Sequence record: SRR20825006_1326
Length of the DNA: 64,000 bases
Direction: 5' to 3' (one strand)
Shown: positions 4,374-59,545 of the stretch, one piece after another
Layout: the number at the start of each line of letters is the position of its first letter
How positions within the stretch are numbered: the first letter of the stretch is position 1
Program-made: the position numbers and the translations under genes
The notes under the pieces: model-generated
What the model was told of the DNA's origin: nothing
Databases searched by the model: none
What the model saw: only the letters and a program-made list of their open reading frames with translations

Positions 4374-4516
4374 AAAGGGAACCCCATTAGGTTTGATTTG
4401 CAAATCATTGCTAGCCTAAACATGCTAGCTTAATGATCTCAAGACGAATTATTGTTTTATTTCGCGCATATGGACGGAACAATCGGGACGCAATCGCATT
4501 TAAAAACGGGGCAATT

Positions 4517-5134
4517 ATGGCCGAAATTAAGAAACTCAAAAATGGCAAGAAAATCCTGCCGCTAATGGCCACAACCATTGAATATGGCGAACATCTCAAT
4601 CAGCAGATTGATCCGTACATTATTGGGGTAGGGCCTGTAGAAGCTGCAATGAACAGCATGCAGATTCTGAATCAATTGCCAGACAAGCCCGATTATGCAG
4701 TGCTTCTTGGCTCATCAGGCTCTTCACGACTTGCCCAAGGCGAAATCTACCAAGCCTCAAGCGTCAGCTATCGCGATATGGACGCTTCGGCCATCGGATT
4801 TGAAAAAGGCAAAACGCCATTTCTCGACTTGCCAGCAACATTACCGTTAGAGCCAATGTTTGACTTTCTACCCGCCGCAACCTTGTCCACAGGTGGCAAG
4901 GTCATTGTGGGTCCTGAATTTGATCAGCTAGCAGAAGACATGGTGGATATGGAAAGCTTTGCGGTAAAACGCGCCTGCCAATCCCACAATGTGCCACTCA
5001 TCGTCCTACGTGGCATTAGCGACGGCAAAAAAGAGCTGCAAAAGTATGATGATTGGACAGGACTATTGCCCATGCTTGATCAAAAACTGGCAGAGGCCTT
5101 GGCAAATATTTGCAACGAGCTTTCCCAGCCTTAG
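4517..5134 (+). CDS. MTA/SAH nucleosidase (PNP/UDP phosphorylase superfamily)
   Basis: Motifs GVGPVEAA, SYRDMDAS, VDMESFAV, LRGISDG. ATG 4517 preferred over 4433. Confidence 0.82.
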   Translation: MAEIKKLKNGKKILPLMATTIEYGEHLNQQIDPYIIGVGPVEAAMNSMQILNQLPDKPDYAVLLGSSGSSRLAQGEIYQASSVSYRDMDASAIGFEKGKTPFLDLPATLPLEPMFDFLPAATLSTGGKVIVGPEFDQLAEDMVDMESFAVKRACQSHNVPLIVLRGISDGKKELQKYDDWTGLLPMLDQKLAEALANICNELSQP

Positions 5135-6279: not shown

Positions 6280-6400
6280 AAAAATTCCTTTGCCCACCTG
6301 CGAAAAATTCGGGCAGGGGTGCGCACAGAATACTGAAATCTAAAGAAGATTAAAACGTAATTTTAGTAGCGGCATTTGCGCTGCTTCGTCGCATCGCAAG

Positions 6401-7309
6401 TTAAGCGTGGCTTTCCACTTCACGCCACAGCCGTTGCAATGTCGGCTTGTCATTGTCTTTTTTCTTATAAAGCCGGATCTGCAAATTCTCAGTCAATTGT
6501 TCATCGCCCATCTGCAAAATATTACCATTCTCCAGCTCTTCTTTGCAGAGATCAAAGGGCAACCATCCAAAGCCGAACCCTTTCAGAATCATAGCCTTAA
6601 TGGAAACAGCCAAAGCATTTTTGCTGACCACAAAAACGCTTTTGGGGTGTATTTCACGCGAAAGAATGCCATCCACCACAGGGCGAAGTGATGACGTGTT
6701 GCCATAACTCAAAAGCGGTACAGAACTATTTTGTCCAGTGTCGAAACTAAACAATGGCGCGCCATTTTCCGCACCCGTCACGGGCAACAATCTATCGGTA
6801 GAAAGCGTAATGTAATCGCATTGCGCCACTTCCAACGGCGCCAGAAAATCCATGTCCGGATGCCAATAAGTCAGGATAATATCGCAATAATTTTGCTGCA
6901 ACGCTGTGACAAATTTGCTCGCTTCCCACGCTGACGAATTGAGGTCCACATCTAAGCCGACTTGGTCCACCAGTGGCGCGATATGTGACTTATAGTGCGT
7001 GAGATATAGGGATTGGGTGGTAGCAAATCGAATTTGATTTTCATTTGCCGCATCAATGGTTTGGCAGCGCTCCACCGTTTCCGAAAATGTGTCCAATATG
7101 ATTTTCGCTTGCGACAGGAAAACCTGCCCCGCAGGCGTAAGTGACAAGGGAAGCGTTTGTCGATCAATCAGCTTAACACCAACCTCATCTTCAAGCGCGC
7201 GAATGCGTCTAGAAAAGGCAGGTTGGCTCACATTGCGCACCTCTGCCGCCCGCGAGAAACTCTTCTGCACGGTAAGCGCCTCAAAATCTCTGAGCCAAAT
7301 GAGGTCCAA
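6401..7309 (-). CDS. LysR-family transcriptional regulator (HypT/YjiE-like)
   Basis: N-terminal HTH SFSRAAEVRNVSQPAFSRRIRALE; 302 aa. Confidence 0.93.
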   Translation of the reverse strand: MDLIWLRDFEALTVQKSFSRAAEVRNVSQPAFSRRIRALEDEVGVKLIDRQTLPLSLTPAGQVFLSQAKIILDTFSETVERCQTIDAANENQIRFATTQSLYLTHYKSHIAPLVDQVGLDVDLNSSAWEASKFVTALQQNYCDIILTYWHPDMDFLAPLEVAQCDYITLSTDRLLPVTGAENGAPLFSFDTGQNSSVPLLSYGNTSSLRPVVDGILSREIHPKSVFVVSKNALAVSIKAMILKGFGFGWLPFDLCKEELENGNILQMGDEQLTENLQIRLYKKKDNDKPTLQRLWREVESHA

Positions 7310-7341
7310 AGCCTTATTCCATCCCTAAACTTGGTGGGTGA

Positions 7342-8358
7342 TCAATCATCCAAACGATCTTCTTCAACTGCGTGGCACGCTACTGTGCTTCCATCGGGTT
7401 GGCGCATGGGACGAGGGCGCTCATGACGGCAGCGATTGGTGGCGAAATGACATCTGCTTTCAAACGGACAGCCAGTTGGCGGCACAAGCGGCGTTGGCCG
7501 CTCACCACGCAGGCGAATATATTTTGGCTTGTCGTCTTTAAGTTGCGGAATGGCAGACAAAAGTGCCCTTGTGTAAGGATGTTTCGGGCGTTCAAACAGA
7601 GTACGAGTACTGGATATCTCACAAATTGACCCCAAATATAAAACCGCAACACGCGTGGCAAAATGCTGCACCACATTCAAATCATGCGCAATAAATAAAT
7701 ATGTTATGCCGCGTTCTGCCCGTGCTTCAAGCATAAGGTTCAAAATTTGCGCCTGTATCGAAGCATCAAGCGCAGAAATCGGTTCATCTGCAATCATAAA
7801 TTCGGGATCAACCGTAAGTGCCCGCGCAATTGCTATGCGTTGGCGTTGTCCGCCTGAAAAAGCATCGGGGTACCGATCGCTCCAGGTCTGATCAATCCCC
7901 ACCGAACGCATAATGTCCGTCTTGCGCTGTTGAATATCCTGCGGCGAATAATCTGGAAAGTGATGCTTTAGGGGTTCGACCAAAGCTTCATCGACCGTCA
8001 TGCGCGGATTAAGCGACGCATATGGATTTTGGAAAATCATTTGCATGCGCTTGCGCAAGGGGCGCTGTTCACCACGTGAAAGCTGATCAACCCGTTGACC
8101 ATCAAAGTGAATTTCGCCCGAAGTGGGCCGCTCCAACCCGGTGATCAGTCGTGCAATCGTTGATTTTCCGCAGCCAGATTCTCCAACCAAACAAAAAGCT
8201 TCGCCCTGATCGATCGAGAAAGAAACATCGTTCACCGCATGCACATAGTTTTTTCGGCTGCGCAGACCCAGCGAACCAGGGCCACGATGGTGCAGCTCAA
8301 ACTGCATATGTAAATTTTTGACGTCCACCAAGGGGCGGTTTTGTACCACATGATTCAT
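7342..8358 (-). CDS. Oligopeptide/dipeptide ABC transporter ATP-binding subunit (DppF/OppF-like)
   Basis: Walker A GESGCGKS, signature [13 protein letters not shown]-terminal GCPF..RC..C..CH. Confidence 0.95.
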
Positions 8359-8362
8359 AGAG

Positions 8363-9346
8363 CTATTCCACCAATGTCTCTTGATGCAAGCGGTTCACTT
8401 CGTGGCAGGCCACTGAGGCGTCGCGATATTGCACAAGGCTCGGACGTTCGCGCGTACATTCCGGCGAAGCGTAGGCGCACCGCGGATGAAATGGACACCC
8501 CTCAGGGAGTGACAGCAAAGAAGGCATATATCCTGCGATGGATTTGAGCGGCGTGCCGGGCAACGTTTGTTGCGGCAATGCGGAAATTAGGCCCTGCGTA
8601 TAGGGATGCTGCGGGTCGTTGATCACTTCACGGGTTTTTCCCGTTTCCACCACTTCGCCCGCATACATCACCATTACGCGCTCTGTGAGTTGGCACACAA
8701 CACCCAAATCGTGCGTGATGAGAATAAGGCCGACATTGTTGGCCATGCATAAATGGAGCAGCAACTCTAAAATATCGGCTTGTGTGGTGACATCTAACGC
8801 AGTTGTTGGTTCATCAGCGATAATAAGATCAGGATCAAGCAGCAAAGCGATTGCAATAATCACGCGTTGCCGCATACCGCCGGAAAGCTCATGCGGATAT
8901 TGGCCAAGTCGGCTTTCAGGCGCAGAAATATAAACTTCGCGCAATTTTTGAATAGCAATAAATTCAGCTTCATCCTGCCGCAATCGACGATGTGCCATCA
9001 ATGTTTCAACCATTTGTTGGCCGATGGTGAGTACCGGATTGAGCGTCACGAGGGGATCTTGAAAGATCATCGCCATACGGTTGCCACGAATTTTCCGCAA
9101 CTGCCGCTCATTTAGGCGAACCATATCTTGTCCGTCAAAAAGCACCTTGCCACGATCAATAAACCCGGGGGAGTTCAGCAAATTCATCATAGCAAATCCA
9201 GTGATGGACTTGCCCGCACCGGACTCGCCAACAATGCCGAGGCGCTCGCCTTTTTGCAGCTCAAATGACACATTGTTCACCGCAGTGATCGCGCCAAATG
9301 GCCCGCCAAACTTCACATTTAGGTTTTGCACGGACAGCAAAGCCAT
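8363..9346 (-). CDS. Oligopeptide/dipeptide ABC transporter ATP-binding subunit (DppD/OppD-like)
   Basis: GESGAGKS, LSGGMRQR, DEPTTALD. ATG 9346 overlaps the upstream stop codon (TAATG). Confidence 0.95.
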   Translation of the reverse strand: MALLSVQNLNVKFGGPFGAITAVNNVSFELQKGERLGIVGESGAGKSITGFAMMNLLNSPGFIDRGKVLFDGQDMVRLNERQLRKIRGNRMAMIFQDPLVTLNPVLTIGQQMVETLMAHRRLRQDEAEFIAIQKLREVYISAPESRLGQYPHELSGGMRQRVIIAIALLLDPDLIIADEPTTALDVTTQADILELLLHLCMANNVGLILITHDLGVVCQLTERVMVMYAGEVVETGKTREVINDPQHPYTQGLISALPQQTLPGTPLKSIAGYMPSLLSLPEGCPFHPRCAYASPECTRERPSLVQYRDASVACHEVNRLHQETLVE

Positions 9347-10284
9347 TATCCAGCCTCCGGCACATGTTGCGGGGCAATGCTGTCGCGCAGCCAATCACCA
9401 AGCAAATTGACCACCAAAATCAGCACCACCAGCAACAGCGCGGGCAATGTGGTGATCCACCAACTGCCAGAAAACAAATAGTCAAATCCGCTGGCAATCA
9501 GCGACCCAAGTGACGGGTAGGCGATGGGCATGCCAAGCCCCAAAAAGCTGAGCGATGCCTCCGCAATAATGGCGTTGGCGATTTGTATGGTTGAAATCAC
9601 AAAGATCGATGCCAGAGAGTTGGGCAAAATATGACGCACCATAATACGCATGGGGCCAAAGCCCATAATGCGCGCCGCATCCACATATTCCTTCTGCTTT
9701 TCCGCCAAAACTGTCGCCCGCACCGTGCGGGCATATTGCGGCCACTCGGCCAAGCCGATGATCACAATCAAAAGGAAGGGGGCATATTGCGCAAAAAACG
9801 CACGGCCACCCACCACTTGGGTTAGCGCGAGGAACACAATAGCAATCATAAGTGTCGAAAAGGAGAGTTGAATATCAGCAAGGCGCATCAACAAACTATC
9901 CACACGGCCGCCCACATATCCGCTAATCAGGCCAATGCTGACGCCGATAAGTGTTTGCACCAGCACAGCGCCCAACCCAATGATCAGCGAAAGGCGAAGC
10001 CCATAGAGCATGATCGACCACATATCGCGGCCCTGATCATCTGTACCAAACAAGAACGCAGGCTCAGCACCTTCTGCCCAGAATGGCGGCCGCTCGCTGT
10101 TGAGAATATCAATTTGGGTGGTGTCAAACGGATCAAATGGCGCAAGCAGCGGCGCAAACGCTGCCAGCAGGCACAATATTGCAAAGATCACCAACGAAAC
10201 AAAAGCCACAGGATGATGGCGCAATCCAATGGTGAGATCGCTTTGGAAGAAGCGTGAATAGAGCGAAAGATACGAGTTGCTCAT
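9346..10284 (-). CDS. Peptide ABC transporter permease (DppC/OppC-like)
   Basis: FGTDDQGRD, EAA loop EYVDAARIMG, HILPN, EASLSFLGLG. Confidence 0.93.
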   Translation of the reverse strand: MSNSYLSLYSRFFQSDLTIGLRHHPVAFVSLVIFAILCLLAAFAPLLAPFDPFDTTQIDILNSERPPFWAEGAEPAFLFGTDDQGRDMWSIMLYGLRLSLIIGLGAVLVQTLIGVSIGLISGYVGGRVDSLLMRLADIQLSFSTLMIAIVFLALTQVVGGRAFFAQYAPFLLIVIIGLAEWPQYARTVRATVLAEKQKEYVDAARIMGFGPMRIMVRHILPNSLASIFVISTIQIANAIIAEASLSFLGLGMPIAYPSLGSLIASGFDYLFSGSWWITTLPALLLVVLILVVNLLGDWLRDSIAPQHVPEAG

Positions 10285-11237
10285 GCGGCCATCCTCGCCA
10301 AATTAACAGTCGGATTGATCGCGCTGTAAAGCACATCAACAATGGTGTTCAGTACCACGAAAATCGCCCCGACCACCATTAGATAGGCAACGATCAACGG
10401 CGCATCGCCACGGTTCACCGCTTCCAAAAACATAAAGCCCATGCCCGGCCACTGAAACACGGTTTCTGCCAAAATTGTATAGGCCACCAATGTGCCGATT
10501 TGCACGCCACCAACGGTCACAACCGGCAGCAATGTGTTTTTCAATGCGTGCACAAAATAGATGCGCCAGGGCGATAGGCCACGCGCACGGGCATATTTCA
10601 CATACTCGCTTTTCAGCACTTGCCGCATCTCGGCGCGGATCAACCGCACAAAAAGCGGCAGCATGACTGAGGCCAAAGCAAATGCGGGCAAAACAATATG
10701 TTTCAGCCCATCCCAAGATGCAAAATTTGTTTCCCAATAGCCGACAATTGGCACAACATCACCGCGGCCGAATGAAGGCAAAATGTTCCAGGTCACCGAA
10801 AACAGATAGATCAACAAAATCGAGGTCACGAAAACGGGTACAGAAAGGCCCAATACGGAAATACTCAAAATCAGCCGGCTAAGCGTATGATTTGGATAGA
10901 GTGCTGTGAAAATGCCCAACGGCACTGAGAAAATGCCCACAAGCACTGCCGCCGCAAAAATCAGTTCCAGAGTCGCAGGCATCTTTTTCAGGATAACCGT
11001 CAGTGCAGGCTCTTTGAAAAATGAGCTGGTGCCCAAATCGCCCTGAATTGCACCGGACACAAACTGAGAATATTTGGTCAAAAACCCGGCATCAGTTTCA
11101 ACATTATACGCCGCAGCCGAGCCTGGATTGAGTCCTTGTTGGAAAGCAAGATTATCCTGCACGGTAAACCCAATCAGCGAGATCACCGCAAGCACAAGAA
11201 GTGCCTGAATAAATCTTTTTGCCAAATAAATAATCAT
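10281..11237 (-). CDS. Peptide ABC transporter permease (DppB/OppB-like)
   Basis: GDLGTS, PATLEL, EYVKYARARGL, HALKN, ETVFQWPGMG. Confidence 0.93.
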   Translation of the reverse strand: MIIYLAKRFIQALLVLAVISLIGFTVQDNLAFQQGLNPGSAAAYNVETDAGFLTKYSQFVSGAIQGDLGTSSFFKEPALTVILKKMPATLELIFAAAVLVGIFSVPLGIFTALYPNHTLSRLILSISVLGLSVPVFVTSILLIYLFSVTWNILPSFGRGDVVPIVGYWETNFASWDGLKHIVLPAFALASVMLPLFVRLIRAEMRQVLKSEYVKYARARGLSPWRIYFVHALKNTLLPVVTVGGVQIGTLVAYTILAETVFQWPGMGFMFLEAVNRGDAPLIVAYLMVVGAIFVVLNTIVDVLYSAINPTVNLARMAA

Positions 11238-11294
11238 CTTATCTCAAATAAAACTCGCGGTTGCAGCTCAAGTGAAAATGGTCGTGGAATTGCA

Positions 11295-12851
11295 TTACTG
11301 CGCCTCCATCACAAGGTCGCCGAAATAGGGCGCATTTTGCGCATTCACAATGTCTTCAGCCAAAATGCCGTTGCGCACGCCCCAAGCTAAATTTTGCCAA
11401 TGCAGCGGAATAAAAGCGGCGTCATCGAACAAGATTTGTTCAAGATCGCGCAAAAGCCCCGCTCGCACGGTCGCGTCCATTTCGCTATTCGCGCGCTGCA
11501 TCAATTCGTCTGCATCGGGGTTGCAATACCCTGATGAGTTGTAACGGCCTTGCCCGGTTTCCTCATTCGGACACGCGGTCAAAAACTGATGGAAATTAGC
11601 ACTGTCTTCGGTGTCAGAATGCCAACCGATCATCATCATATCAGCGGCCCGCGCGTCATACTGGGTCCAATATTGCGCCTTTGGAATGGTTTGCAAATCA
11701 ACTTCAATATTGATTTTGCTCAGCATCAGCGCCACCGCCTGCGCGATGCGTTCATCGTTCACATAGCGATTGTGCGGTGCCAGCATGCTGACTTGAAAAC
11801 CATCCGCATATCCGGCCTCCGCCATCAATGCCTTTGCTTTCTCTAAGTCATAGCGCGGCGTTAGCCCCTCAATATGTCCCACATATCCTTCGGGGCTCAT
11901 TTGCGCGCTAACCGTGGCAAATCCATGCATGATGCGCTCAACAATTCCAGCATTGTTAATCGCATAATCAACTGCTTGCCGCACACGGATATCTTTGAAC
12001 GCGGGTACACGATCCATATTCAGCTGAAAGGTGATCGCACGTGTGCCGGGCATGGTGATGAGTTTGGTTTGCGGATGGTCAGACACATTTTTGAGGTTTG
12101 AAGGAGCAACAGGGGCAATAAAATCAACCGCTCCCGACAGCAGAGCCGCCAGCCGCGTTGAATCCTCTTTAATCGGCGTCAGCACAATTTCTTCAACATT
12201 GCCTTTGGATTGTTGATCCCAATAGCGGTCAAAGCGTTTGAACACGCTTTTGACGCCTTGTTCGCGCTCTGCCACGATAAATGGGCCCGTGCCGGAGGCA
12301 TTGCGAGAAGAGAAGCTATTGCCATGTTTAACGATCTCCGCCTTGTCACGTCCATCATCCGTCAAACCGGAGTAAAAAGCTCGATCCATCGGGAAAAGAT
12401 AGGTCAAGGAGTTCAACACAAGCGGGTAGGGTTGGCTCATCTTAACGTCGAATGTGTGATCATCAATCACTGAAACAGAAGTGAAGGGCTCAAAAATCGC
12501 TTTGAAGTCACCGCTGGTTTTTAAGCGATTGAAGGTCCACTCAACATCATATGCCGTCAGCAAATTGCCACTGTGAAACTGCACATTCTCCCGCAAATGG
12601 AAGCGCATCGTTTGCGGGGCGACATATTCCCATCGCTCGGCCAACCGCGCTTCAATTTCGTGATCTTGCGTCCATCGCACCAGCGGATCAAAAATCAAAT
12701 GCGACAATTGCAACGTGCCACCGGAAAGCTGCTCATAAGGATCCAATGAAACCGGATCTGCATCATAGGCTACGCGCAAACTATTCTGCGCCGCCGTTGG
12801 CCCACTGAACATCACAGTGAGCATGATTGCTGCAAAAACTCTCCTCAACAT
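11295..12851 (-). CDS. Peptide ABC transporter substrate-binding protein (SBP family 5)
   Basis: Signal peptide; motifs DPVSLDP, LAERWE, FHLRENVQFHSG, GTGPF, VRQAVDYAIN. Confidence 0.94.
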   Translation of the reverse strand: MLRRVFAAIMLTVMFSGPTAAQNSLRVAYDADPVSLDPYEQLSGGTLQLSHLIFDPLVRWTQDHEIEARLAERWEYVAPQTMRFHLRENVQFHSGNLLTAYDVEWTFNRLKTSGDFKAIFEPFTSVSVIDDHTFDVKMSQPYPLVLNSLTYLFPMDRAFYSGLTDDGRDKAEIVKHGNSFSSRNASGTGPFIVAEREQGVKSVFKRFDRYWDQQSKGNVEEIVLTPIKEDSTRLAALLSGAVDFIAPVAPSNLKNVSDHPQTKLITMPGTRAITFQLNMDRVPAFKDIRVRQAVDYAINNAGIVERIMHGFATVSAQMSPEGYVGHIEGLTPRYDLEKAKALMAEAGYADGFQVSMLAPHNRYVNDERIAQAVALMLSKINIEVDLQTIPKAQYWTQYDARAADMMMIGWHSDTEDSANFHQFLTACPNEETGQGRYNSSGYCNPDADELMQRANSEMDATVRAGLLRDLEQILFDDAAFIPLHWQNLAWGVRNGILAEDIVNAQNAPYFGDLVMEAQ

Positions 12852-12925
12852 GTGGCTTTGTCCTCCCCAGAACCAAACGCACCAATTTCAAACAGAAGTT
12901 TGAAATATTTTGGCTGCGTTCCCCA

Positions 12926-15900
12926 TCACAAGCTTGGCACTCTAATGGGCTGTTTGTGATCTGAAAAGAACTGTTCCGCAATCCGCTCAATATTCGGCGA
13001 TTGCATGATTGAATAATGGTCTGCCTCCAATATCTCCCCATAAATAAGTTCAGGTAAACGTTGGCCCCATTTTGCCATATGGTTCTGCGGCTTGATCGGG
13101 TCGACCAGAAGCCCATCGGCAACCTGTCCTGCAACAAAAAGATGAACTTTCGTGTGGCGCAACTCGCCCGGCACATGGGCGCGCATCGCAGCCATATTGA
13201 GCTGGCAGCACCGCACAAGGTTTTCCAAATGTTGCTGCAACTCAGGGGCGATCTGACTCTGTAACGAGGCATGAGATTTATTTAGGCGGGGGGCCAAATC
13301 GTGCAAGAACGCCTCTTGTACTTCCTCTTTGGAATGTTCAGCGATCTCCGCACCGCAATCAGGTTCTGGCGGATCAATCATGGTCAAATAGCCAAACGAT
13401 TTATCCTGATGCTCTGCTAGACGACACATTTCTGCCGCCACCCATGCGCCAAACGACCAACCAACCAATTCCAAATTATGCCGTTCTTGGTCAGTTTTCT
13501 GATCCAAAGCCTGCAAATATGCTTTTGCCCGTGCTTGGATGGTCAGCGGCTCACCAGGTTCCAATCTAAGATTTGGATCGGAAATCGCATAAACGGTGGT
13601 GGCTTTGTCCAGATGTTGAAATAACGATTTGTATGAAGCCACTTCGCCGCCCACCGGATGGATAAAGCAAATCACCTTCTCGCCATCGCCTTGTTGCCAG
13701 CAATCTACGGAGATAGTGAGGCTTTCACGATCCTGCTGAACCTCACCGTCTTCCAGCCCTTCTTCAACATATTGAACCACATCATTCAGCGTTGCGTCCT
13801 CATGAAAGGCCGAAACGGGCAGGCTTACACCAAATGCAGCTTTGATCTCGTCGATCAAATCCAAGGCCATCAAAGAGTCAATGCCTAACTCACCAAATGA
13901 ATTGGATGGCGCAAATGTATCCAAGCCAAGCACGGTTTGAAGCATTGCCGATAAACGCGCTGCAATATCTGATGAATTGTCTTTGCCAGCGATCAACTCA
14001 ACCAGTCCGCTAACAGTCAATGCTGGCGGTAACTCTGAAAGCGCGAGCTCAACGCCTAAAGCCACCTTGATCTCATCAATCAAATCTAGTGTCGCCAGCG
14101 AGTCTATGCCCAATTCATCCAATCTATGATGGGTCGAAACTTCGGTTTCACCAGAAATGCTCTGAACCAAATCGATGATAATCTCATCTTTAGATTGATT
14201 AATCTGGCTCGGTGCCGCTAACGGTTTTTCTGAAGCACTATAAAATTGAACCGCGTCCTTCAACGCGACTGTCGATACGCAAATCTGCGGATGCGAACTC
14301 GCCAAGCAACGCTGGAAAATAGAACGGCCTTCTTGATCTGATAAACCATATGTCAGATGCAATTGGTGCAAATCATCATGCTCAAGCGCGTTAACCGCCA
14401 TGCCGCTTTCACGCCAAATATCCCAGTTGATAACGGTACGCACCGTGTTGGGCGCGTTTGGGTTTACCCAGTGCGCAAAACTATCCAGCAGCCCATTGGT
14501 CGCCGCATAATCCAGCTGCCCGCGACCACCAAATTCAGAGGCCATGGACGAGCAATAAATGACGCGCTTGGGCTGTTGTTTCCCAACCCAGCTCTCCAGT
14601 TTTAACAGGCCTTGGGTTTTCACTTTGTTATTTTGACGCATAGCGTCTTTGTCACGATGCGCAATAAGCGCACCATGTGCCGCACCAGCGGCAAAAACGA
14701 CATTTTCAACCGGTCCGTCCAGTTTCGGCAATATCGCATCTTCTTGTGCAAGATCGAGAGCATGCACGGTAATCCGATCCGCATAATCCGCAAGTGGTTC
14801 AGGCAATTGCCCGCTACGTGTCGTGATGTCCAACTCAGCATTTGGATCGGATAGAAGCTCAAGGCATATATTTCGTCCAATGCCACCGCTGGCACCGATC
14901 ACCAAGTGCCGACCAGCATATCCCTCAATTTGCAAGCTTGACGAAACCATAGGCGCCAATTGGCGCTGCCATAAACATCCTTTTCGAACTGCATAACGAC
15001 CAGCTTCAACGGGCCTGCGCGTCAGGAAATCATTTAAGTCTTCAATGCAGCCATTCGCGAAATCAATCCAGCTGGTTGCCAAATCACACTCGCTGGCCAA
15101 CACAGATTGTGCCCCCGCCAAAAGCCCAGCGAGTGGCGCTTCATTTGCGCCAAAAACATCCGCCGCCTCACATGAGGCGAGAACAATGCGCAATTTTGAT
15201 GCATCGAATTGCTGTGCCAATTCAAGCACCACCGGAATTGCGTCCAAACAATAAATCTGTGCGTGATCCAGTTGGTCACTTGAGACACCAAGCCCGAGTT
15301 GCGCAGGCGCGAAGTTGATCACATCTACTGTCGTGGTAGGAACAGTCTGGTCAATTTGCCTGGTGACTTCAGCAACATCATCACCAATTTTCAGAAAGTG
15401 AACTTGCTCATAGTTGCTCGCCAAGGCGGCTTTCGCTTCGGCATCCAATCCATCGGCGTGCAATATGATCGCGAAATCTCGTTTTACACTCGGCCCATTC
15501 AAACGGCCCAAATTCTGCCAAGCAGGTGCATAAAGCCAGTCCTGCGCATCCAATCGACGAATGTCATTCAAATTTGCTGGAGTTTGCGCTTTGCCTTTCT
15601 TGGCAAATTCAAAATTCTCCAACATAAACGGATATAGTGGAAAACCTTGTGGACGAGGGGCTATTTGCGTAATTTCGGATGAAAGGTGTGCACCGGACAG
15701 CCAGCGCTCCAAACGTTCTTCCAAATCATCATGTGCCGCCAAGTCGATCTGCTCATTGGATACTGATTTTCGTCCATCATCCAGTTTTCGCAAGGCTGCT
15801 ACTGCTTGTTTCGCATCTGCACACACGAAACCTGCACGGTAGGATAGGTGCGGCGTGCCGTACTGCAAAAATGCCAAGACATTATTGAGCTGGTCAGGTT

Positions 15901-47552: not shown

Positions 47553-48009
47553 CTTTAAAGATCTCAAATGCTAAGAATAAAGCGCCAATTGCTTGGCGGT
47601 CCGGTCCGGGCAATCAAATAAGCGAATAATGTCGCTTTTATGCTGCTGCTGATGCCCACGGATAAAATGATCGAACCTCGCACCGTACGCCTAAAACTTT
47701 AGTCGCGAAAGCTAAAGCGAGGGAGATGAAGTGCGAGATCCGATCGAATAGGGTGCAATGCGAAAAGGCTATAAACGCACCAACTTGGTTGCGCCGAAGT
47801 GCATGGACACACAAATGATCATCGGCGTTTTTAAGTTTGTTCTTAAAATGTTTTTTTCGCCCATAATGCTAGTCCCTCCCAGAGCATAATTGGCAACCAA
47901 GTCATATGTTTTGGTCTCACATATGGCACCTGATATTATCGTTTTTGGTCACCGCCATTTTATGGTTCGGCAACTCGAATAAGCTAATTCCGATTTTTGC
48001 ATCAATCCA

Positions 48010-48044
48010 ATGCTGAATCTGCATACCCTATGCATCTCTTGCAA
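48010..48044. promoter_or_regulatory. Two tandem LysR-type T-N11-A dyad boxes in the divergent NRPS/MFS promoter region
   Basis: ATGC-TGAATCT-GCAT at 48010-48024 and ATGC-ATCTCTT-GCAA at 48030-48044, offset by 20 bp. Confidence 0.5.
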
Positions 48045-48179
48045 TGGATATCCGATCCATATGACGTTACGCTGTCAAACTTGTGGCGTAAAAGAACGTA
48101 TCAGTACGCAGGGTCAAAAGCCCACATCGCCAATAAAGATAAGAACGATCCAATAATGGACGTTTGGGGGGAGAAGAGC

Positions 48180-49424
48180 GTGGCCAATGAAAAGAAAGCA
48201 TGGGGCTTTGTCGCAACTTTGCGCAGCTTGCCGCCTCACGCACAATTCTTCATTGTCGCGATCACTTTGACCCGATTGACCAGTTTTATGGTCTTTCCGT
48301 TTTTAGCTGTCATTTTGAGTGAGCGCTTGGGCGCAACCGTTTTTCAAATCGGCTTTCTGTTTACCTTGGGCGCATTTGTCGGTCTGGCGGCATCGCCTAT
48401 TGCTGGGTTCATTGCCGATGGGATGCGGAAAAAGAATCTGATGCATGGCGCCAACCTGCTGACCATCATTTGCTTTCTGATTTTAGCGTTCTTGCCCAAT
48501 CTACAGGCTTATTTTATCGCGATCACCTTGTTCTCGGCTGCTGGAGGGGTGCTAGAGCCGCTTTTGCGCTCATCTTTGGGCGAATTGGCAGAAAATGAAG
48601 AACAGCGCCCAGCGCTCTTTCATGTGCGATATTACATTGTGAACATTGCGGGCGCGGTCGGGCCATTCATTGGCCTCTGGTTTATTCAAAGCGGAAACAA
48701 CTCAATTTTCCTCATCGCAGCGGCAAGCTATGTGCTCTTGGGCTATGCCATTCAGTTCAAATTGCCTGAAATTGAGGACGCGCCGACCGCCAAAGAACGT
48801 GGCTCAAGCCTGTCCGTCTTAAAAGAAGCATTCAAACATCGTCTATTTGTCGCCTTGTTCATCTCCAACTTGCTGTTGGTCTTTATCTATGCACAAACTG
48901 ACGAGCCGTTGACTTTGCACATGATCAATCTGGGCGTGCCCGACCTGGCCGCGATCATCGCCATGCTCACTGTCACCAACACAGTCGTCGTGTTGGTTAT
49001 CCATGGCCTGTTTATGAAGCAGATTATGGAAATGGGAGAGCGGACAGCCTTTCTGATCGCCATTGCTTGTTTGGGCCTGTCGCTATTGATGATTGCCATC
49101 AACCAACAGCAATTTGTCTGGCTTTGGGTTTTGGCCATCGGGGTTTCAACACTCGGCGAAATCATTGCTTTGCCCATGTTTCTCACCATTGTAGATCGTG
49201 TCGCGCCAAAAGATCAGCGAAACTCCTTTTTCGGCATCTACATGCTGTCCAATCTCGGGGGCGCCGTTGCGCCATTGTTGGCCGCACAATTGATCATCAC
49301 ATTGGGCGGCCCAGTTTTGTTTTATGCCGCAACAGCCTTGTGCCTGCCATTGGCATGGATCGGCTATATCGCTTTGAAAGAAAAACAACCAATTGCGGAG
49401 GAGGGGGAGATTGAATCCGTATGA
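48180..49424 (+). CDS. MFS transporter (MdtH-like), probable product exporter
   Basis: About 12 TM segments; motif GFIADGMRKK; GGGGGAG RBS before GTG 48180; 3' end overlaps the next gene. Confidence 0.88.
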   Translation: MANEKKAWGFVATLRSLPPHAQFFIVAITLTRLTSFMVFPFLAVILSERLGATVFQIGFLFTLGAFVGLAASPIAGFIADGMRKKNLMHGANLLTIICFLILAFLPNLQAYFIAITLFSAAGGVLEPLLRSSLGELAENEEQRPALFHVRYYIVNIAGAVGPFIGLWFIQSGNNSIFLIAAASYVLLGYAIQFKLPEIEDAPTAKERGSSLSVLKEAFKHRLFVALFISNLLLVFIYAQTDEPLTLHMINLGVPDLAAIIAMLTVTNTVVVLVIHGLFMKQIMEMGERTAFLIAIACLGLSLLMIAINQQQFVWLWVLAIGVSTLGEIIALPMFLTIVDRVAPKDQRNSFFGIYMLSNLGGAVAPLLAAQLIITLGGPVLFYAATALCLPLAWIGYIALKEKQPIAEEGEIESV

Positions 49425-50433
49425 AAAATTGGATGATCGCGCATTTTGGAAACTCGGCGTTGCCGAACCCAAACTGGGCGAACTAACCCAAGTCTGGCTT
49501 CCCAAATTTAATATAGAAAAGCAACATGCCGTTGCCACCGCCGGCTCATGCTTTGCGCAAAATATTGGGCGTGCCCTGCGTAGCCGTGGCATGAATTGGT
49601 TGGTCACCGAGAAACCACCGCAAGCTTTGCCACGCTCACTACACACAGCGCATAATTATGGACTTTTCACCTTTCGCACTGGCAACATCTACACGCCCGC
49701 TTTATTGGCGCAATGGGTGCGCTGGGCATTAGATAGATCCAGCATGGACCAAGAAGTGTGGGAAACAGACGGTCGATTTTTCGACCCGTTCCGCCCATCA
49801 GTTCGGCCTAATGGTTTTGACAGCGTCGAAGATGTACTGGCCTCGCGCCACGTCACGGCCGATGCAGTCAAAACGGCAATCGAACAAGCGGATATTTTTC
49901 TGTTCACCCCGGGCCTTACCGAAGCTTGGGTCAACACAAAGTCAAAATCCATTTATCCAGCTTGTCCGGGCACAGTGCAGGGCACCTTCAACCCTGATGA
50001 GCATCAGTGCATCAATTTCGGTTTTGAGTCGGGCAAAAAAGCGTTGGCGAGTGCGTTCGACGCCATGCAAAACCACAATCCAAACATCAAAATGCTGCTT
50101 ACCGTTTCGCCTGTGCCGATCACAGCAACGGTAACTGGCCATCATGCGCTCACCGCCAGCACCTACACGAAATCGGTGCTGCGTGCCCTTGCTGGCGAAT
50201 TTGCCAATGCCAATGAGCATGTGGACTATTTCCCGTCCTATGATTTGGTGTCGCCAGCCATGTTGGACCAGTCCTATTTCAACGAAAACAAGCGAACGGT
50301 TTCCCCCAGTGGCGTCGATTATGTGATGAAGCATTTCTTTGAGGGCTTGGGGCAAGAGAAACAGTCCAGCCCGGTTCCAATGGGCGATATTGTCTGTGAA
50401 GATGAGATTTTAGAATATTATGGCAAAGCATGA
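49411..50433 (+). CDS. GSCFA-domain protein (SGNH-like fold)
   Basis: Literal TAGSCFAQ motif, plus GNIYTP, TPGLTEAW, LTVSPVP, YFPSYD. GGAG RBS before TTG 49411. Confidence 0.9.
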   Translation: MNPYEKLDDRAFWKLGVAEPKLGELTQVWLPKFNIEKQHAVATAGSCFAQNIGRALRSRGMNWLVTEKPPQALPRSLHTAHNYGLFTFRTGNIYTPALLAQWVRWALDRSSMDQEVWETDGRFFDPFRPSVRPNGFDSVEDVLASRHVTADAVKTAIEQADIFLFTPGLTEAWVNTKSKSIYPACPGTVQGTFNPDEHQCINFGFESGKKALASAFDAMQNHNPNIKMLLTVSPVPITATVTGHHALTASTYTKSVLRALAGEFANANEHVDYFPSYDLVSPAMLDQSYFNENKRTVSPSGVDYVMKHFFEGLGQEKQSSPVPMGDIVCEDEILEYYGKA

Positions 50434-51082
50434 ATTTGCATTGATTGGTGACTCGCACGCAGGCACCATTGGCCGCGCTGCGCGGGAACGGGGCATCGAA
50501 TTTGGCGGCGGCCCCATCGCCTCCGGCAAAGAGTTTTATTCAGATTTTTTCGAGGTAGAGCAGGGCAAACTCAGCTTTGTTGTGGAAGATACAATCCGGG
50601 TATATGGCGAACTGTGCCAGCTTTGGGGTGTAGATTGCATTGAAGATTTAGAGATTCCAATTGTCTCCACCATTGGCTCTGGATTTCATTTCCCAGCGGC
50701 ACGCGCCGTTTGGGCAAACTTCCGCGACGAAAATCTAGGCTTTACTCAGGACTTTATCGCTGGCCCCATGTGTCAATCGATCTTTCAACGCATGCAAGCA
50801 CCCATGTTGGCCTTTCATCAGCACCTAGTCGAGCAGGGCAAAACCGTGTTTTTCGCACTACCACCACAACGCGTTCCAGACAGTGCATGGGGTGAACTGT
50901 TCCGTGCACTGCAAAATCGTGCCGTTAGCGAACTCACAAAAATTGGCTGTTCAGTCATCGATGTGCGCAATGACACATCGGATAAGGAAGGCAATCTTCT
51001 GGCTGAATATTGCCAGGACAATGATCCAATTCATGGAAACACCGCCCTGGGCAAAAAGATGTTAGAGGCCGCTGGCCTCTAA
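50420..51082 (+). CDS. SGNH/GDSL hydrolase-like protein
   Basis: N-terminal IGDSH (block I Ser) and C-terminal DPIHGN (DxxH); overlaps the GSCFA gene. Confidence 0.72.
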   Translation: MAKHEFALIGDSHAGTIGRAARERGIEFGGGPIASGKEFYSDFFEVEQGKLSFVVEDTIRVYGELCQLWGVDCIEDLEIPIVSTIGSGFHFPAARAVWANFRDENLGFTQDFIAGPMCQSIFQRMQAPMLAFHQHLVEQGKTVFFALPPQRVPDSAWGELFRALQNRAVSELTKIGCSVIDVRNDTSDKEGNLLAEYCQDNDPIHGNTALGKKMLEAAGL

Positions 51083-51954
51083 ATTTTCTCGTAAGGCTTT
51101 TCGCCCACAAGAGTTACCCGCTCACCAAAGCGGGAATAGGGGTAATAATCCCAAATGGCCCGGTGCTGCGTGCAACGATTATCCCAAAACACCACGGTGC
51201 CAGTTTCCCACTGAACGCGACAGCTCAACAGCACCTCATGCTCAATCTGTCGGAACAGCATTTCCAAAATGGCACGGCTTTCAAATTCAGTGAGCTGCAA
51301 AATGCGCGTCGTAAAACCGGGATTAATATAGAGCATTTTTGCACCCGTTTCCGGATGTTTCACCACAATTGGGTGCTCGATCTTTGGCAAATTAGGTGGC
51401 GCTTCATACCCAGCCCATGGCAATGCCGCATCATGGATCGCAGTCATACCTTCAAGCATTTCTTTCATGCCCGGCGAAAGCATCTCATAGGCCAAATGCA
51501 TATTGGCAAAAACCGTATCACCACCGCATCCAATCTCCGGAATTTGATGAATGTGCAGCATCTGCGCCCATGCGGGCTGTTCCGATGCAGTGCCATCTGT
51601 GTGCCAAACTTCACCCGCCACAAACTGCGAAGCGTCCGAGGCTTGGATCAACACAATCTCGGGATCATCGCCATCAATATCTTCAAGTGCCATTTTCCGC
51701 AGCGTACCAAAATTGCGAGCAAACTCTTTTTGCTGCTCCGTATCAATTTTCTGATCACGGAAAACCAACACATGATATTCATTCAGCGCCTGCCGCAACT
51801 CAGCAACCTGCTCTTTGCTGATTGGTTTTGACATGTCGATGCCACTCACTTCGCCACCGATAACCGGATTGAAGCGCTTTACATTGATGGTCTTAAAGTC
51901 AGTCTTTTTGGCCGTGGCGATCTTTTTGATCGCTTCTAAATTGGTGTGGTCCAT
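51079..51954 (-). CDS. TauD/TfdA-family Fe(II)/2-oxoglutarate dioxygenase
   Basis: HxD motif WHTDG, GGDTVFAN, HPIVVKHPETG, WDNRCTQH. Confidence 0.95.
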   Translation of the reverse strand: MDHTNLEAIKKIATAKKTDFKTINVKRFNPVIGGEVSGIDMSKPISKEQVAELRQALNEYHVLVFRDQKIDTEQQKEFARNFGTLRKMALEDIDGDDPEIVLIQASDASQFVAGEVWHTDGTASEQPAWAQMLHIHQIPEIGCGGDTVFANMHLAYEMLSPGMKEMLEGMTAIHDAALPWAGYEAPPNLPKIEHPIVVKHPETGAKMLYINPGFTTRILQLTEFESRAILEMLFRQIEHEVLLSCRVQWETGTVVFWDNRCTQHRAIWDYYPYSRFGERVTLVGEKPYEKI

Positions 51955-51993
51955 TTCTCTCTCCCAAATGACAATTCTTCTTGTCCGTTTGTT

Positions 51994-52650
51994 TTAACTG
52001 ATGGCCTGCTGCAGTTTTTCCTGCAATTCTGTTGCCAATTCTGCTTGGCTTTTTGGGCCCAAGGCATTCTGATAGCTGCGCATCAAGCCACGTAAAAATG
52101 CTTCAGGGCAGCTATTCAAAAATTCGTCGACGCTTCTTGTCTCAAAACTTTTTGCAATGCCTTCGCCCATCGCCGCACTCACCGTGCGGTTGAAAAAGGC
52201 GAGCATCGCATTGGTGTCAGTTTCGGCATAATATTCCGCATAATTCTCTGCACTGCCGAAATGCTCATTGATCATGGCTTGATTTTTGCCAGCAAATTCC
52301 ATGGCACTTTCATGCGCCGCATCATAAGTCGCATCATAGGCAAATGATTGGCCTGTTTGCTGCTCAAACATCTCACGCAATGCTGCAGCCCAAAGTGTGC
52401 CAACATAAGTGCCGTCTGTTTTCCATTGCTGCGCCAAAGTTTCAACGCGCTGAAGGGGCGACAAATCCTCAGCCCGCAATTGCGAAACAGTTTTCGCCAC
52501 GGGCAACAGCCCATCACAAACCCACTTAATCACCGCATCAAAATCATCATTTTCAACATTAGCAGTCACAAGCGGAAGAGCATTTTCCTCTACCGAATTG
52601 GCACTTAAAATGTTTGAGAGGGTGAGGGCCCAATGGCGATCATCATTCAT
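51994..52650 (-). CDS. Hypothetical protein (acidic, probably helical), embedded in the BGC
   Basis: Open ~218-aa frame filling the gap between the PPTase and TauD genes on the same strand; GAGG before ATG 52650 (alternative start 52665). No motif recognised. Confidence 0.7.
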   Translation of the reverse strand: MNDDRHWALTLSNILSANSVEENALPLVTANVENDDFDAVIKWVCDGLLPVAKTVSQLRAEDLSPLQRVETLAQQWKTDGTYVGTLWAAALREMFEQQTGQSFAYDATYDAAHESAMEFAGKNQAMINEHFGSAENYAEYYAETDTNAMLAFFNRTVSAAMGEGIAKSFETRSVDEFLNSCPEAFLRGLMRSYQNALGPKSQAELATELQEKLQQAIS

Positions 52651-52728
52651 TATTTGGAGCCTCATTTGACGCAGTATGGCTTTTCAAAAATCAGTTGATC
52701 AAACGCATCAAATTTTGACCCGCAAAAT

Positions 52729-53433
52729 CTATGATAAACCTAGCAATTCAGCGCTATTGAGGCAAGTCAGAACGCAGCCATTTACAGCTGAATTTACCGC
52801 TAAACAGCCAATTATTTCGGCCTTTGGATCATCGAAATCCAACAAGCGAAAAGAACCCGAAAAATCAACAACCGGATTATGCGTATTTAGCCGTACATCA
52901 ATAGTGTTGAGCTCATCAATCAACCCCGTTGCCGTCACCTTCAACAGCGCTTCTTTGCGCACCCACATGCGCAAAAACGCACAGCCTTGTTCGGCTGTAT
53001 CTTTTTGGGCAATCCAAGCTCTCTCATTGGCGTGGCACACCATATCGATCAAACTGTCAGCTTCTTTCTTGCGCGACATTGTTTCAATATCCACGCCCAC
53101 AGCATGGTGCCGATGAAAGGCAACCGCAACCGCTTGTTGTGTGTGGGAAATATTGAAATGCATGCTCGGGAAAGTTGGTTTGCCATTTTCAGTCAGATCA
53201 AAGTCAATTGTAGGCAAGTCCAAGAAATGCCTGACCAAACTACGTCCCAAAATGTGCGCTTGGCGCTGTGCAGGGACTAAAACACGATCAAATTTCGCCG
53301 CTTCGTTCGGCGTAATTTGAGGCGTTAACGCCTTGACTTCATCGAGTGCCGCATAAAACACCGCTGCTTGATCGGCATCTAGCGCCTTATGAATGCGCGA
53401 CCGACATGCATTAAGTTGCTCATGCAGTGACAT
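52729..53433 (-). CDS. 4'-phosphopantetheinyl transferase (Sfp-type)
   Basis: GKP, FNISHT, VGVDIE, WVRKEALLK. ATG 53433 overlaps the end of the TEII gene. Confidence 0.93.
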   Translation of the reverse strand: MSLHEQLNACRSRIHKALDADQAAVFYAALDEVKALTPQITPNEAAKFDRVLVPAQRQAHILGRSLVRHFLDLPTIDFDLTENGKPTFPSMHFNISHTQQAVAVAFHRHHAVGVDIETMSRKKEADSLIDMVCHANERAWIAQKDTAEQGCAFLRMWVRKEALLKVTATGLIDELNTIDVRLNTHNPVVDFSGSFRLLDFDDPKAEIIGCLAVNSAVNGCVLTCLNSAELLGLS

Positions 53434-54139
53434 GGGTTTTTCGCGCCACAAAATCATTGACGATCTTCTGCAATTCCTGGCTGGACGCCTCATGCATATT
53501 GTGCTCACCGTCAATTTGCTGAAGGTCAAATTGCCCGCTTGTAAACTGAGCCCAAGGTTGCATAGTCTCAGGACGCGTCACGCTGTCCTGATTCCCAGCG
53601 ATCCCCAGAATGTCGGTAGAAATGACCCGTCCGCTCACTGGCTTATAAGCCGCACACATCCGAAAATCGCTGATAATTGTTGGCAACAATAATTCCAATA
53701 ATTCAGGATATTGCATAAGTTCTTTAAAGTGTGGGTTGAACGCGAGTAAATCGTCGGTAATCCGCGCCTCATCTTCAAGCTTTGGCAAATGCCGCGGCTG
53801 GTCGGGTGAGGGCGACGTCAGCGCGATGATGAATTCAGGCGCTTGCCCGATCTGTTCAAACCGCCACGCCAATTCATACGCAATCCATCCGCCCATGCTG
53901 GACCCAAGAAACGCAAAGCGATTCATTGGGCCAGCGCGCAGTTCTTCGAACACATCATCACAAAGGCGCTGAAAATCGCTTGGTGTTACATCATCAAGCC
54001 GCACGCCGCGTCCCGGCAAGGTGACAGGGGTCACCTGCACATCATTACTCAGAAAACGCTCCCAGCTCTTAAATATGGCCGCATCAGCACCAGCCTGTGG
54101 AAAACAAAACAGCTGCAATGCGGAAGTAGCGGCAGGCAT
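53420..54139 (-). CDS. Type II (editing) thioesterase
   Basis: LFCFPQAG, LPGRG, GSSMG nucleophile, C-terminal GEH. GGAG RBS before ATG 54139. Confidence 0.92.
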   Translation of the reverse strand: MPAATSALQLFCFPQAGADAAIFKSWERFLSNDVQVTPVTLPGRGVRLDDVTPSDFQRLCDDVFEELRAGPMNRFAFLGSSMGGWIAYELAWRFEQIGQAPEFIIALTSPSPDQPRHLPKLEDEARITDDLLAFNPHFKELMQYPELLELLLPTIISDFRMCAAYKPVSGRVISTDILGIAGNQDSVTRPETMQPWAQFTSGQFDLQQIDGEHNMHEASSQELQKIVNDFVARKTHVTA

Positions 54140-54325
54140 AAAAACAAGCTCCAAATCAATGCGCAAATCACCATTGGCATGCATATAAGCAGACCTGTTT
54201 CAGATTCACAAATGATTGGGAGAAAAGACGAAATATCCGGTGCAAGCACAAAAGCTCACACAAAAACACACCAAATTACCCGAAGCAATATGCGTGAAGA
54301 AAACTAGATAAGTCTTTGAAGGGAA

Positions 54326-55417: not shown

Positions 55418-55554
55418 CACTAGTTTTCCCCAAAAGAGCTGCGAATCAAACTGTTAACTAAGAATAATAATGCAGATATAATTTACCATTTTGCCAACAC
55501 ATTCGTGGCATATGCCCAAATACAGGACTTAAAAGGGGTGGGGACCTTTATTTT

Positions 55555-56892: not shown

Positions 56893-56901
56893 GATCAAAA
56901 T

Positions 56902-59541: not shown

Positions 59542-59545
59542 TGCG

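Follow-up and report, generated by a model that had tools for sequence, protein, structure and literature searches.

A chromosomal Maritalea gene block with two assembly lines, predicted to direct synthesis of a ureido octapeptide ester of the DRL family

The window analyzed in the current work is a 64,000 nt stretch of sequence record SRR20825006_1326, which contains between positions 6401 and 54184 a block of nonribosomal peptide synthetase (NRPS) and polyketide synthase (PKS) genes that, as judged from its sequence, is an intact cluster of the detoxin/rimosamide-like (DRL) family, this being a family with at least six characterized branches, detoxins and rimosamides among them. Within this family the block is assigned to the ureido/thiazole branch (pseudovibriamide, pseudobulbiferamide and chitinimide). 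The host is a marine Maritalea bacterium close to M. mobilis, and the cluster is chromosomal. The complete reading proposed here, in which two cooperating assembly lines of a DRL cluster would generate a ureido octapeptide ester, is given a probability of roughly 0.85, and the product is probably an undescribed variant of the DRL peptides. An initial annotation of the same DNA had anticipated a two-line NRPS and NRPS-PKS cluster of the detoxin/pseudovibriamide type, which is borne out by the domain layout, by collinearity with the pseudobulbiferamide (mbp) cluster and by the TauD-type gene.

Domain architecture and family placement

Five megasynthase open reading frames (ORFs), all on the minus strand and named W1 to W5 in order of transcription, were retrieved from the ORF list. 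Successive ORFs overlap by 1, 4, 4 and 8 nt, and because of these overlaps W1 to W5 are suggested to constitute a single translationally coupled operon. Domains were called by Pfam on the whole proteins and on module-sized pieces, in combination with motif scans, and are listed below as adenylation (A), thiolation (T), condensation (C), ureido-type condensation (Curea), heterocyclization (Cy), oxidase (Ox), ketosynthase (KS), ketoreductase (KR), acyl carrier protein (ACP) and thioesterase (TE) domains, with docking regions of the TubC_N family.

42672-47567, minus strand: W1, 1631 aa, A-T-C-A-T, modules 1 and 2 (Pfam)
W1 domains: A (residue 1) 46146-47498; T 45891-46043; Curea 44475-45830; A (residue 2, X) 43002-44390; T 42735-42923
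36295-42672, minus strand: W2, 2125 aa, TubC_N dock-C-A-T-C-A-T, modules 3 and 4 (Pfam)
W2 domains, module 3: dock 42514-42663; C 41179-42459; A (Ile/Leu/Val-like) 39679-41112; T 39406-39597
W2 domains, module 4: C 38074-39339; A (Gly) 36976-37998; T 36340-36531
26078-36298, minus strand: W3, 3406 aa, C-A-T-C-A-T-Cy-A-T-Ox, modules 5 to 7
W3 domains, module 5: C 34916-36184; A (Arg) 33416-34813; T 33155-33343
W3 domains, module 6: C 31790-33100; A (Pro) 30278-31720; T 30005-30196
W3 domains, module 7: Cy 28658-29827; A (Cys) 27125-28558; T 26867-27049; Ox 26147-26668
22071-26081, minus strand: W4, 1336 aa, TubC_N dock-C-A-T-TE, module 8 (Pfam)
W4 domains: dock 25923-26069; C 24609-25907; A (Gln) 23130-24533; T 22851-23039; TE 22140-22778
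12926-22078, minus strand: W5, 3050 aa, second line, A-T-C-A-T-KS-KR-ACP-ACP-TE (Pfam)
W5 NRPS domains: A (Ile/Val-like) 20636-22048; T 20387-20551; C 19076-20314; A (Pro) 17573-18982; T 17294-17482
W5 PKS domains: KS 16163-17239; linker without acyltransferase (AT) 15773-16153; KR 14408-14914; ACP 13988-14161; ACP 13766-13957; TE 12968-13672

The first line (W1 to W4) comprises eight A domains, and the totals over W1 to W5 are ten A domains, eight condensation-family domains and two TE domains, so that the ORF list and Pfam agree with the initial annotation as to five overlapping megasynthase genes, ten A domains and two terminal TEs. Because eight condensation-family domains are exactly the number needed, there is no spare epimerase, and by this count none of them is to be assigned as an epimerization domain. 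The true start of W1 is probably the ATG at 47552 (as initially annotated), which fits the 1626-aa orthologs P0001 and P0002 better than the TTG at 47567. The two C domains of W2 carry the motifs HHLVFDG and HHIAFDG, and the TE of W4 reads GLSFG.

W5 was initially described as restarting with a C-less A-T module, and its AMP-binding domain indeed begins at residue 11. The proposed order A-T-C-A-T-KS-KR-T-TE likewise holds, except that a tandem ACP had been overlooked: two PP-binding stretches are recognized by Pfam at 13766-14161, together with two near-identical GIDS motifs. The KS retains its Cys, His and His residues in the motifs QAACGSS, HGTGT and SQIGH, the KR contains GxGxxG and YAATN, and the TE reads GWSFG. 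No Acyl_transf_1 domain was matched by Pfam in W1 to W5, and the hybrid W5 is thus without an AT.

DRL clusters are described as being marked by a signature hybrid, by a dioxygenase in all members and by the co-occurrence of PipD, PipF and PipG, pipG being invariably found next to pipF while the location of pipD varies (PMC12828459). In the window, W5 represents the A-T-C-A-T-KS-KR-ACP-TE hybrid without an AT domain, a TauD-type dioxygenase gene is part of the cluster, and a PipG-like (GSCFA) gene adjoins a PipF-like gene, with a PipD-like gene elsewhere in the cluster. Features of the ureido/thiazole branch are the loading A-T followed by a Curea domain with the EHHXXHDG signature, and the Arg-Pro modules followed by a Cy-A-T-Ox module for a Pro-thiazole.

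When plasmids were searched by tblastn with the TauD protein, the best match (65% identity) was to a plasmid of Microbulbifer sp. MKSA007, CP128431.1, which is reported to carry the mbp cluster (PMC10616845). W3, W4 and W5 are collinear with MbpB (42.6% over 3395 aligned positions), MbpC (43.3% over 1362) and MbpD (40.5% over 2087), respectively. The C domain with which W3 opens retains its catalytic His and Asp, and the Microbulbifer counterpart of this domain reads HHFISDG. W2 is only about 29-32% identical to any Microbulbifer NRPS, and W1 and W2, which are about 30% identical to MbpA, represent four modules in 3756 aa versus three modules in 2765 aa for MbpA; these first four modules are not orthologous to those already known. 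Seven accessory proteins of the block have Microbulbifer homologs, these being the major facilitator superfamily (MFS) transporter, the GSCFA protein, the 220-aa protein, TauD, the 223-aa protein, the phosphopantetheinyl transferase (PPTase) and the type II TE (TEII), whereas the LysR protein, the five importer proteins and a 308-aa protein found no match among the ten Microbulbifer proteins compared.

Specificity codes, predicted product and alternatives

The ten A domains of the window were aligned with nine Microbulbifer A domains, and the ten specificity positions of each were read by motif anchoring, the position map following the GrsA numbering. As a control, 7/7 MbpA-C modules of known residue gave codes fitting the isolated products when compared to canonical codes. 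The agreement of window codes with those of the corresponding mbp modules is as follows.

Cys module (W3): 10/10
Gln module (W4, versus MbpC): 10/10
Ile/Val-like module (W5): 9/10
Pro module (W5): 9/10
Arg module (W3): 8/10
Pro module (W3): 7/10
Gly module (W2): 7/10

The module 3 code, DAFFIGIGYK, is near the W5 loading code DAFFLGVTFK and resembles that of a branched-chain, Ile/Leu/Val-like substrate. The module 1 code, DSLTIVGVCK, has only about 5/10 positions in common with Phe/Tyr codes, and an aromatic residue 1 is a weak assignment, resting mainly on family analogy. The residue string of the initial annotation is therefore in agreement with the codes for Ile/Leu/Val, Gly, Arg, Pro, thiazole and Gln, its aromatic first residue being the weak part. 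The module 2 code, DAGCAGLIDK, with small residues at four positions and an Asp at position 331, suggests that residue 2 (X) has a long side chain, possibly basic or an amide; this code is identical in all Maritalea orthologs and in two further proteins, P0004 and P0005. The codes of modules 1 to 3 and of one relative were not found as text in the searchable literature, and PDB searches with the two W1 A domains returned generic NRPS matches only (LgrA being the best), which were of no help regarding the substrate.

In the C domain separating modules 1 and 2 the motif is EHHIVHDG, and in the characterized MbpA it is EHHLVHDG. For the C domains in MIBiG, the signature EHHXXHDG is described as both necessary and sufficient for a ureido bond to be formed (PMC11212132), and a ureido bond between residues 1 and 2, as initially proposed, is therefore supported. 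The C domain following module 2 has the canonical motif HHLVFDG, whereas its MbpA counterpart reads HHIIDDN, a type proposed for conversion of Thr to dehydrobutyrine (Dhb); no Dhb is therefore expected at this point.

A search of 5.8 billion proteins with W1 retrieved only five proteins above 50% identity, the next best being at 33%. Among the relatives are the metagenome-derived P0004 and P0005 (1638 and 1641 aa), which are 51-53% identical to W1 and have the same A-T-Curea-A-T build with the motif EHHIVHDG; their residue-2 code is the same as that of W1 and their residue-1 codes are different. Related heads therefore exist outside the sampled Maritalea.

The product is accordingly predicted to be residue1-CO-X-(Ile/Leu/Val)-Gly-Arg-Pro-Thz-Gln (Thz, thiazole), present as an ester to an (Ile/Val)-Pro-derived beta-hydroxy acid which is later hydroxylated and O-acylated. 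While domain layout, motifs and homologies are observed, the order of the steps, the ester transfer, the hydroxylation and the acylation are modelled on characterized homologs. Line 1 (W1 to W4) would load residue 1 and join it head-to-head to residue 2 through a CO2-derived ureido bridge formed by the Curea domain, followed by addition of the Ile/Leu/Val-like residue, Gly, Arg, Pro, Cys and Gln, with the Cys being converted to a thiazole through cyclization by Cy and oxidation by the C-terminal Ox domain. Line 2 (W5) would generate Ile/Val-Pro and extend it by one malonate on the AT-less KS-KR-ACP2 module, probably loaded by the sole acyltransferase of the cell, FabD, after which the KR would reduce the ketide to a beta-hydroxy thioester. 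The W4 TE may then move the octapeptide onto the beta-hydroxyl of the W5 unit, creating the ester, and the W5 TE would release the depsipeptide. Hydroxylation of the proline ring by TauD, O-acylation by the GSCFA protein and two small proteins, and export by the MFS transporter are predicted to complete the pathway.

Several of these steps have precedents in the pip system of Pseudomonas entomophila, for which it is reported that FabD serves PipC as a trans-AT, that the TE of the last NRPS (PipB) forms the ester onto PipC-bound ivprolide (in vitro chitinimide work being cited in the same source), that full-length products are lost when the PipB TE is deleted or carries a Ser to Ala substitution, that PipC releases the product by its own TE, that PipE hydroxylates Pro, and that PipD, PipF and PipG O-acetylate the pip product (PMC12828459). 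A single Acyl_transf_1 gene (a 316-codon ORF) was found per genome in 3/3 cluster-bearing Maritalea, in one of which a FabF-like match is located no more than 3 kb away, and this single gene fits the reported role of FabD in serving PipC.

Certain observations weigh against the proposed reading. The first C domain of W3 (34916-36184) has the motif HHTVADR and not HHxxxDG, the N-terminal half of the product is predicted from codes alone, W1 and W2 being only about 30% identical to MbpA, and the module 2 code agrees best with the canonical codes for Gln, at 7/10, and Orn, at 6/10. Further such points concern convergence of the two lines and expression of the cluster. With regard to convergence, W1 to W4 might release a free ureido octapeptide, and W5 a separate Ile/Val-Pro-ketide acid or none. 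From Microbulbifer only heptapeptides are described, with no MbpD-extended congeners detected in that report (PMC10616845), Pseudovibrio is reported to excrete the free heptapeptide besides the ester (10.1101/2020.12.15.422899), and the PipC TE is described as able to release the small unit by hydrolysis (PMC12828459). Against this, the W4 TE, W5, TauD and the three acylation genes are intact and conserved in 4/4 Maritalea clusters, and tetrapeptide release in P. entomophila is reported to depend on PipC, with the PipB TE making the ester (PMC12828459); two lines without convergence are consequently considered quite unlikely.

Ester formation by two cooperating lines would also be compatible with an arm of another length, if one module, such as the extra hydrophobic module of W2, were skipped or facultative and the main product carried a heptapeptide arm or a mixture of lengths. 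Such variation has parallels in chitinimides A and B, which are derived from one cluster and are reported to differ by a Ser and a Dhb (PMC8302735), and in pseudobulbiferamides B and D, which are without the terminal Gln; moreover, an unusual A5 motif, NIYGPCE, is found in the A domain of module 3, in W2. Skipping is however very unlikely, as the extra module retains intact motifs in its C, A and T domains (HHLVFDG, SGSTGKPK, GRRDFQVK and GGYSL) and its code is identical in 4/4 genomes.

That the cluster is silent or decaying and yields no product is scarcely credible. It is true that no product has been seen and that RNA-library contigs are no proof of transcription: two seawater RNA libraries from one study (X3 and X5) contain contigs over nearly all of 34000-53999, mostly at 90-95% identity, but these span both strands as well as intergenic DNA and are therefore no evidence of transcription. 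On the other hand, no stops or frameshifts are present in 11.5 thousand codons, and no catalytic motif of the KS, the KR, either TE (GxSxG) or the carrier domains is disrupted. Three orthologous clusters agree at all 100 code positions, and since all ten codes are identical in 4/4 Maritalea clusters despite the proteins being only 73-95% identical, selection on the product can be argued.

Accessory genes, island limits and host

The remaining genes of the block are listed below. The presence of PPTase, TEII, TauD, GSCFA, MFS, peptide ABC and LysR genes around the megasynthases, as initially annotated, was confirmed by Pfam.

6401-7309, minus strand: LysR-type regulator (Pfam HTH_1 and LysR_substrate), lower edge of the island
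7342-12851, minus strand: peptide ABC importer of Opp/Dpp type, five genes (Pfam)
7342-8358 and 8363-9394, minus strand: importer ATPases, with oligo_HPY (Pfam)
9346-10284 and 10281-11237, minus strand: importer permeases (Pfam)
11295-12851, minus strand: importer binding protein, SBP_bac_5 (Pfam)
47997-49424, plus strand: MFS transporter, PppG/MbpG-like (Pfam MFS_1), divergent from W1; 41.5% to the Microbulbifer MFS protein
49393-50433, plus strand: GSCFA protein, PipG-like (Pfam GSCFA); 46.7% to the Microbulbifer homolog
50420-51082, plus strand: 220-aa hypothetical protein, PipF-like, gene overlapping the GSCFA gene; 34.7% to the Microbulbifer homolog
51079-51954, minus strand: TauD/TfdA Fe/2-oxoglutarate dioxygenase, PipE/PppK/MbpK-like (PF02668, E 7.7e-57); 62.9% to MbpK
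51994-52665, minus strand: 223-aa hypothetical protein; 26.8% (E 2e-14) to a 210-aa Microbulbifer hypothetical protein
52729-53529, minus strand: PPTase, Sfp-type, start uncertain (Pfam ACPS); 35.2% to the Microbulbifer homolog
53420-54184, minus strand: type II TE (Pfam Thioesterase), upper edge of the island; 34.6% to the Microbulbifer homolog

TauD is a predicted prolyl hydroxylase by analogy with its characterized homologs. No Pfam family was matched by the 220-aa and 223-aa proteins. The 223-aa protein is a candidate for the PipD-like third subunit of the O-acylation complex and is the weakest assignment of this trio; its gene stands apart from the overlapping GSCFA and 220-aa genes, on the other strand. 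There is no GNAT gene in the window, and none is expected in DRL members whose N-terminus is already capped, according to the pip study (PMC12828459). A GSCFA gene with an adjoining PipF-like gene (30% to the 220-aa protein) was also observed on a Leisingera sp. M527 plasmid (NZ_CP081038.1, 18920-20651), in exopolysaccharide and type II secretion surroundings with no NRPS within 20 kb. This pair is therefore not restricted to DRL clusters, which fits a general O-acyltransferase role.

W2 matches at 92% in Maritalea mobilis CGMCC 1.7002, at 90% in Maritalea sp. S77 and at 85% in M. myrionectae DSM 19524, and the matches listed for W2 consist of these three Maritalea loci and one cyanobacterial locus at 33% identity. 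When 66-67 kb from each of the three cluster-bearing genomes were compared to the window, 30, 29 and 29 of its 30 proteins had a same-order ortholog. The nearest genome compared shares 23% of sampled 31-mers. The PKS half of W5 was found at full length in the same three Maritalea only among 121 species genomes of Devosiaceae, two further matches in this family being to the KS alone (36-37% identity), and the cluster is present in 3/9 Maritalea genomes.

Five cluster-free Maritalea congeners (88-100% complete) were used to determine the island limits. GlmU is present in all five, while the importer binding protein, which is syntenic in 3/3 cluster-bearing genomes, had no match at E at or below 1e-50 in any of them (0/5). 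In the closest cluster-free congener (G049) the gene for the 308-aa protein (hyp308) comes immediately after the patatin-like gene, with glmU next. Because the patatin-like gene is thus joined straight to the 308-aa gene, window positions 6401-54184, from LysR to TEII, are a single indel block of approximately 48 kb, with which the initially annotated bounds of 6401-54139 almost coincide. The LysR and importer genes therefore belong inside the inserted unit, and genes outside it are of the housekeeping type (pgi, EamA, patatin-like, glmU, glmS, recG and mfd). A mobile-element origin was considered and set aside, with no integrase gene or composition break seen at the island edges (tRNAs and repeats were not scanned).

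In the same congener (G049, L029) a different insert of about 8.6 kb, with seven ORFs of 349-459 codons of which one is ABC-ATPase-like, is located at 7323-15919 between PNP-like and patatin-like genes, and this intergenic neighborhood looks like a gene-gain hot spot. Flank proteins (1-12851 and 54494-64000) are 96-100% identical to those of M. mobilis, with GlmS and DUF502 at 100%, where the five megasynthases are at 91.8-95.0% and the 223-aa, PPTase and TEII proteins at 91-94.5%, suggesting either that the cluster diverged faster than its surroundings or that it recombined. Compared to M. myrionectae (L021-L024) in 200-residue windows, the segment encoded by 12926-16120 (W5 residues approximately 1987-3050, encompassing the KS-KR linker, KR, ACP and TE) is only 45-69% identical, versus 72-94% for the rest of W5 and 83-96% for W3 and W4; this segment looks replaced or fast-evolving.

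Members of the genus Maritalea are free-living or alga- and ciliate-associated marine bacteria. In sequencing runs (X2, X3 and X5 being those compared), a marine metagenome matched window positions 34000-53999 with 863 pieces, 211 of which were at 99% identity or more, and the same region is nearly identical in run X1, which may be the source of the DNA. Runs with only a small share of matches were left out of account for habitat. In view of these seawater metagenome and RNA-library contigs, close relatives of the cluster therefore occur in seawater samples. A search of the accessible literature found no report on nonribosomal peptides in Maritalea, the sole Maritalea paper retrieved for biosynthetic gene clusters concerning hopanoids, and the host genus is thus new for such compounds by this search, as had been anticipated.

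Blockage of peptide ABC importers is the proposed mode of action of DRL compounds (PMC12828459), and the importer of the island may therefore be functionally tied to the compound. It is unlikely, in our estimate, that importer and LysR are functionally tied to the product (through uptake, recycling, sensing or provision of an insensitive copy) and that the ureido head may add a second activity to the DRL scaffold; as importer and LysR are linked to the NRPS genes, their co-occurrence is not independent evidence of a shared function. With residue 1, CO, a possibly basic X and a hydrophobic residue in succession, the new N-terminus resembles the Phe-CO-Arg-Val head of ureido protease inhibitors of the antipain/MAPI type. 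If the link to the product were true, the importer would be a testable lead and would make the family's mode of action accessible to genetics.

Comparison with known systems

DRL peptides are reported to protect some bacteria against blasticidin S (PMC12911931; PMC12828459), and pseudovibriamides to modulate motility and biofilm formation in sponge symbionts (10.1101/2020.12.15.422899). Relative to known members, the novelty of the window cluster would lie in its head residue set (no Dhb, a residue 2 left unassigned and an extra hydrophobic residue), in its chromosomal location with a linked importer and LysR gene, and in its host genus. A chromosomal version with a rebuilt N-terminal half would extend the DRL family to the Devosiaceae and offers a strictly conserved A-domain pocket, that for residue 2, for characterization, while leaving the understanding of the family as such unchanged.

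The detoxin and rimosamide clusters of Streptomyces share with the window the A-T-C-A-T-KS-KR-ACP-TE hybrid and the TauD gene. Their product arms are very short, without ureido or thiazole, and their hosts are actinobacteria. In tblastn searches against plasmids, Streptomyces homologs of TauD were found at 49-53% identity and of PipF-like proteins at 28-37%. Members outside these two branches are described as chitinimides (PMC8302735), pseudovibriamides (10.1101/2020.12.15.422899), pseudobulbiferamides (PMC10616845) and pseudotetraivprolides (PMC12828459).

Pseudotetraivprolide (pip, P. entomophila) has the Arg-Pro-thiazole motif and the DRL logic in common with the window, but its arm is described as a tetrapeptide without ureido, N-terminally acetylated by PipH, whereas a ureido octapeptide is predicted here (PMC12828459).

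The chitinimide cluster (chm, MW160162) of Chitinimonas koreensis, a betaproteobacterium, is compared through its description, according to which chmA-C encode eight modules and chmD the hybrid, and the octapeptide arm, esterified to a detoxin-like unit, contains a ureido link together with Arg, a Pro-derived ring and thiazole (PMC8302735). Its length equals that predicted for the window, so that the suggestion made in the initial annotation, that no family member has an eight-residue thiazole-bearing arm, does not stand. The chitinimide residues given are Phe, two Dhb, Ser, Met, Arg, Pro and thiazole, with no Gln reported in this description (PMC8302735), while the window is without Dhb, Ser and Met modules: despite the equal module number it has no Thr- or Ser-like codes and no dehydrating C domains. 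It is possible that the window head matches chmA more closely than mbpA. A C. koreensis protein retrieved with W1, P0104, was ruled out as the ChmA head, having no Curea motif.

The pseudovibriamides (ppp, Pseudovibrio brasiliensis Ab134), also compared through their description, are reported as Tyr-CO-Dhb-Ala/Gly-Arg-Pro-Thz-Gln, esterified to a Val/Ile/Leu-(O-propionyl)Hyp-ketide unit (Hyp, hydroxyproline), and are produced by a cluster with pppA-C, pppD, TauD (pppK), three unknowns (pppHIJ), PPTase and TEII genes (10.1101/2020.12.15.422899). The window is predicted to be the same in the C-terminal tetrad and in the second line. The ppp arm, unlike that of the window, is described as a heptapeptide with Dhb at position 2, and the ppp cluster as plasmid-borne (10.1101/2020.12.15.422899). 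No match to W1 was obtained by megablast against plasmids, and no Pseudovibrio plasmid was among the matches listed when plasmids were searched by tblastn with TauD and the 220-aa protein.

With mbp the window shares the A-T-Curea start, the Arg-Pro-Cy/Ox-thiazole order, the Gln module with its TE and the MbpD-type hybrid. It differs in having eight instead of seven modules in the first line, with an extra hydrophobic module after residue 2, and it has neither the Thr module of MbpA nor the Dhb-type C domain (HHIIDDN) which follows it; both the Thr module with a dehydrating C domain, for Dhb at position 2, and the seven-module first line mark the pseudovibriamide/pseudobulbiferamide type proper. 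Whereas mbp is plasmid-borne, the window cluster is chromosomal, and a single ACP was recognized in MbpD with the motif scan that found two in W5. Neither an Opp-type importer nor a LysR gene is linked to mbp, which does contain a GNAT gene and a sensor kinase. Taken across these systems, the conserved part would be the Arg-Pro-Thz-Gln and Ile/Val-Hyp-ketide core, with the ureido head being exchangeable.

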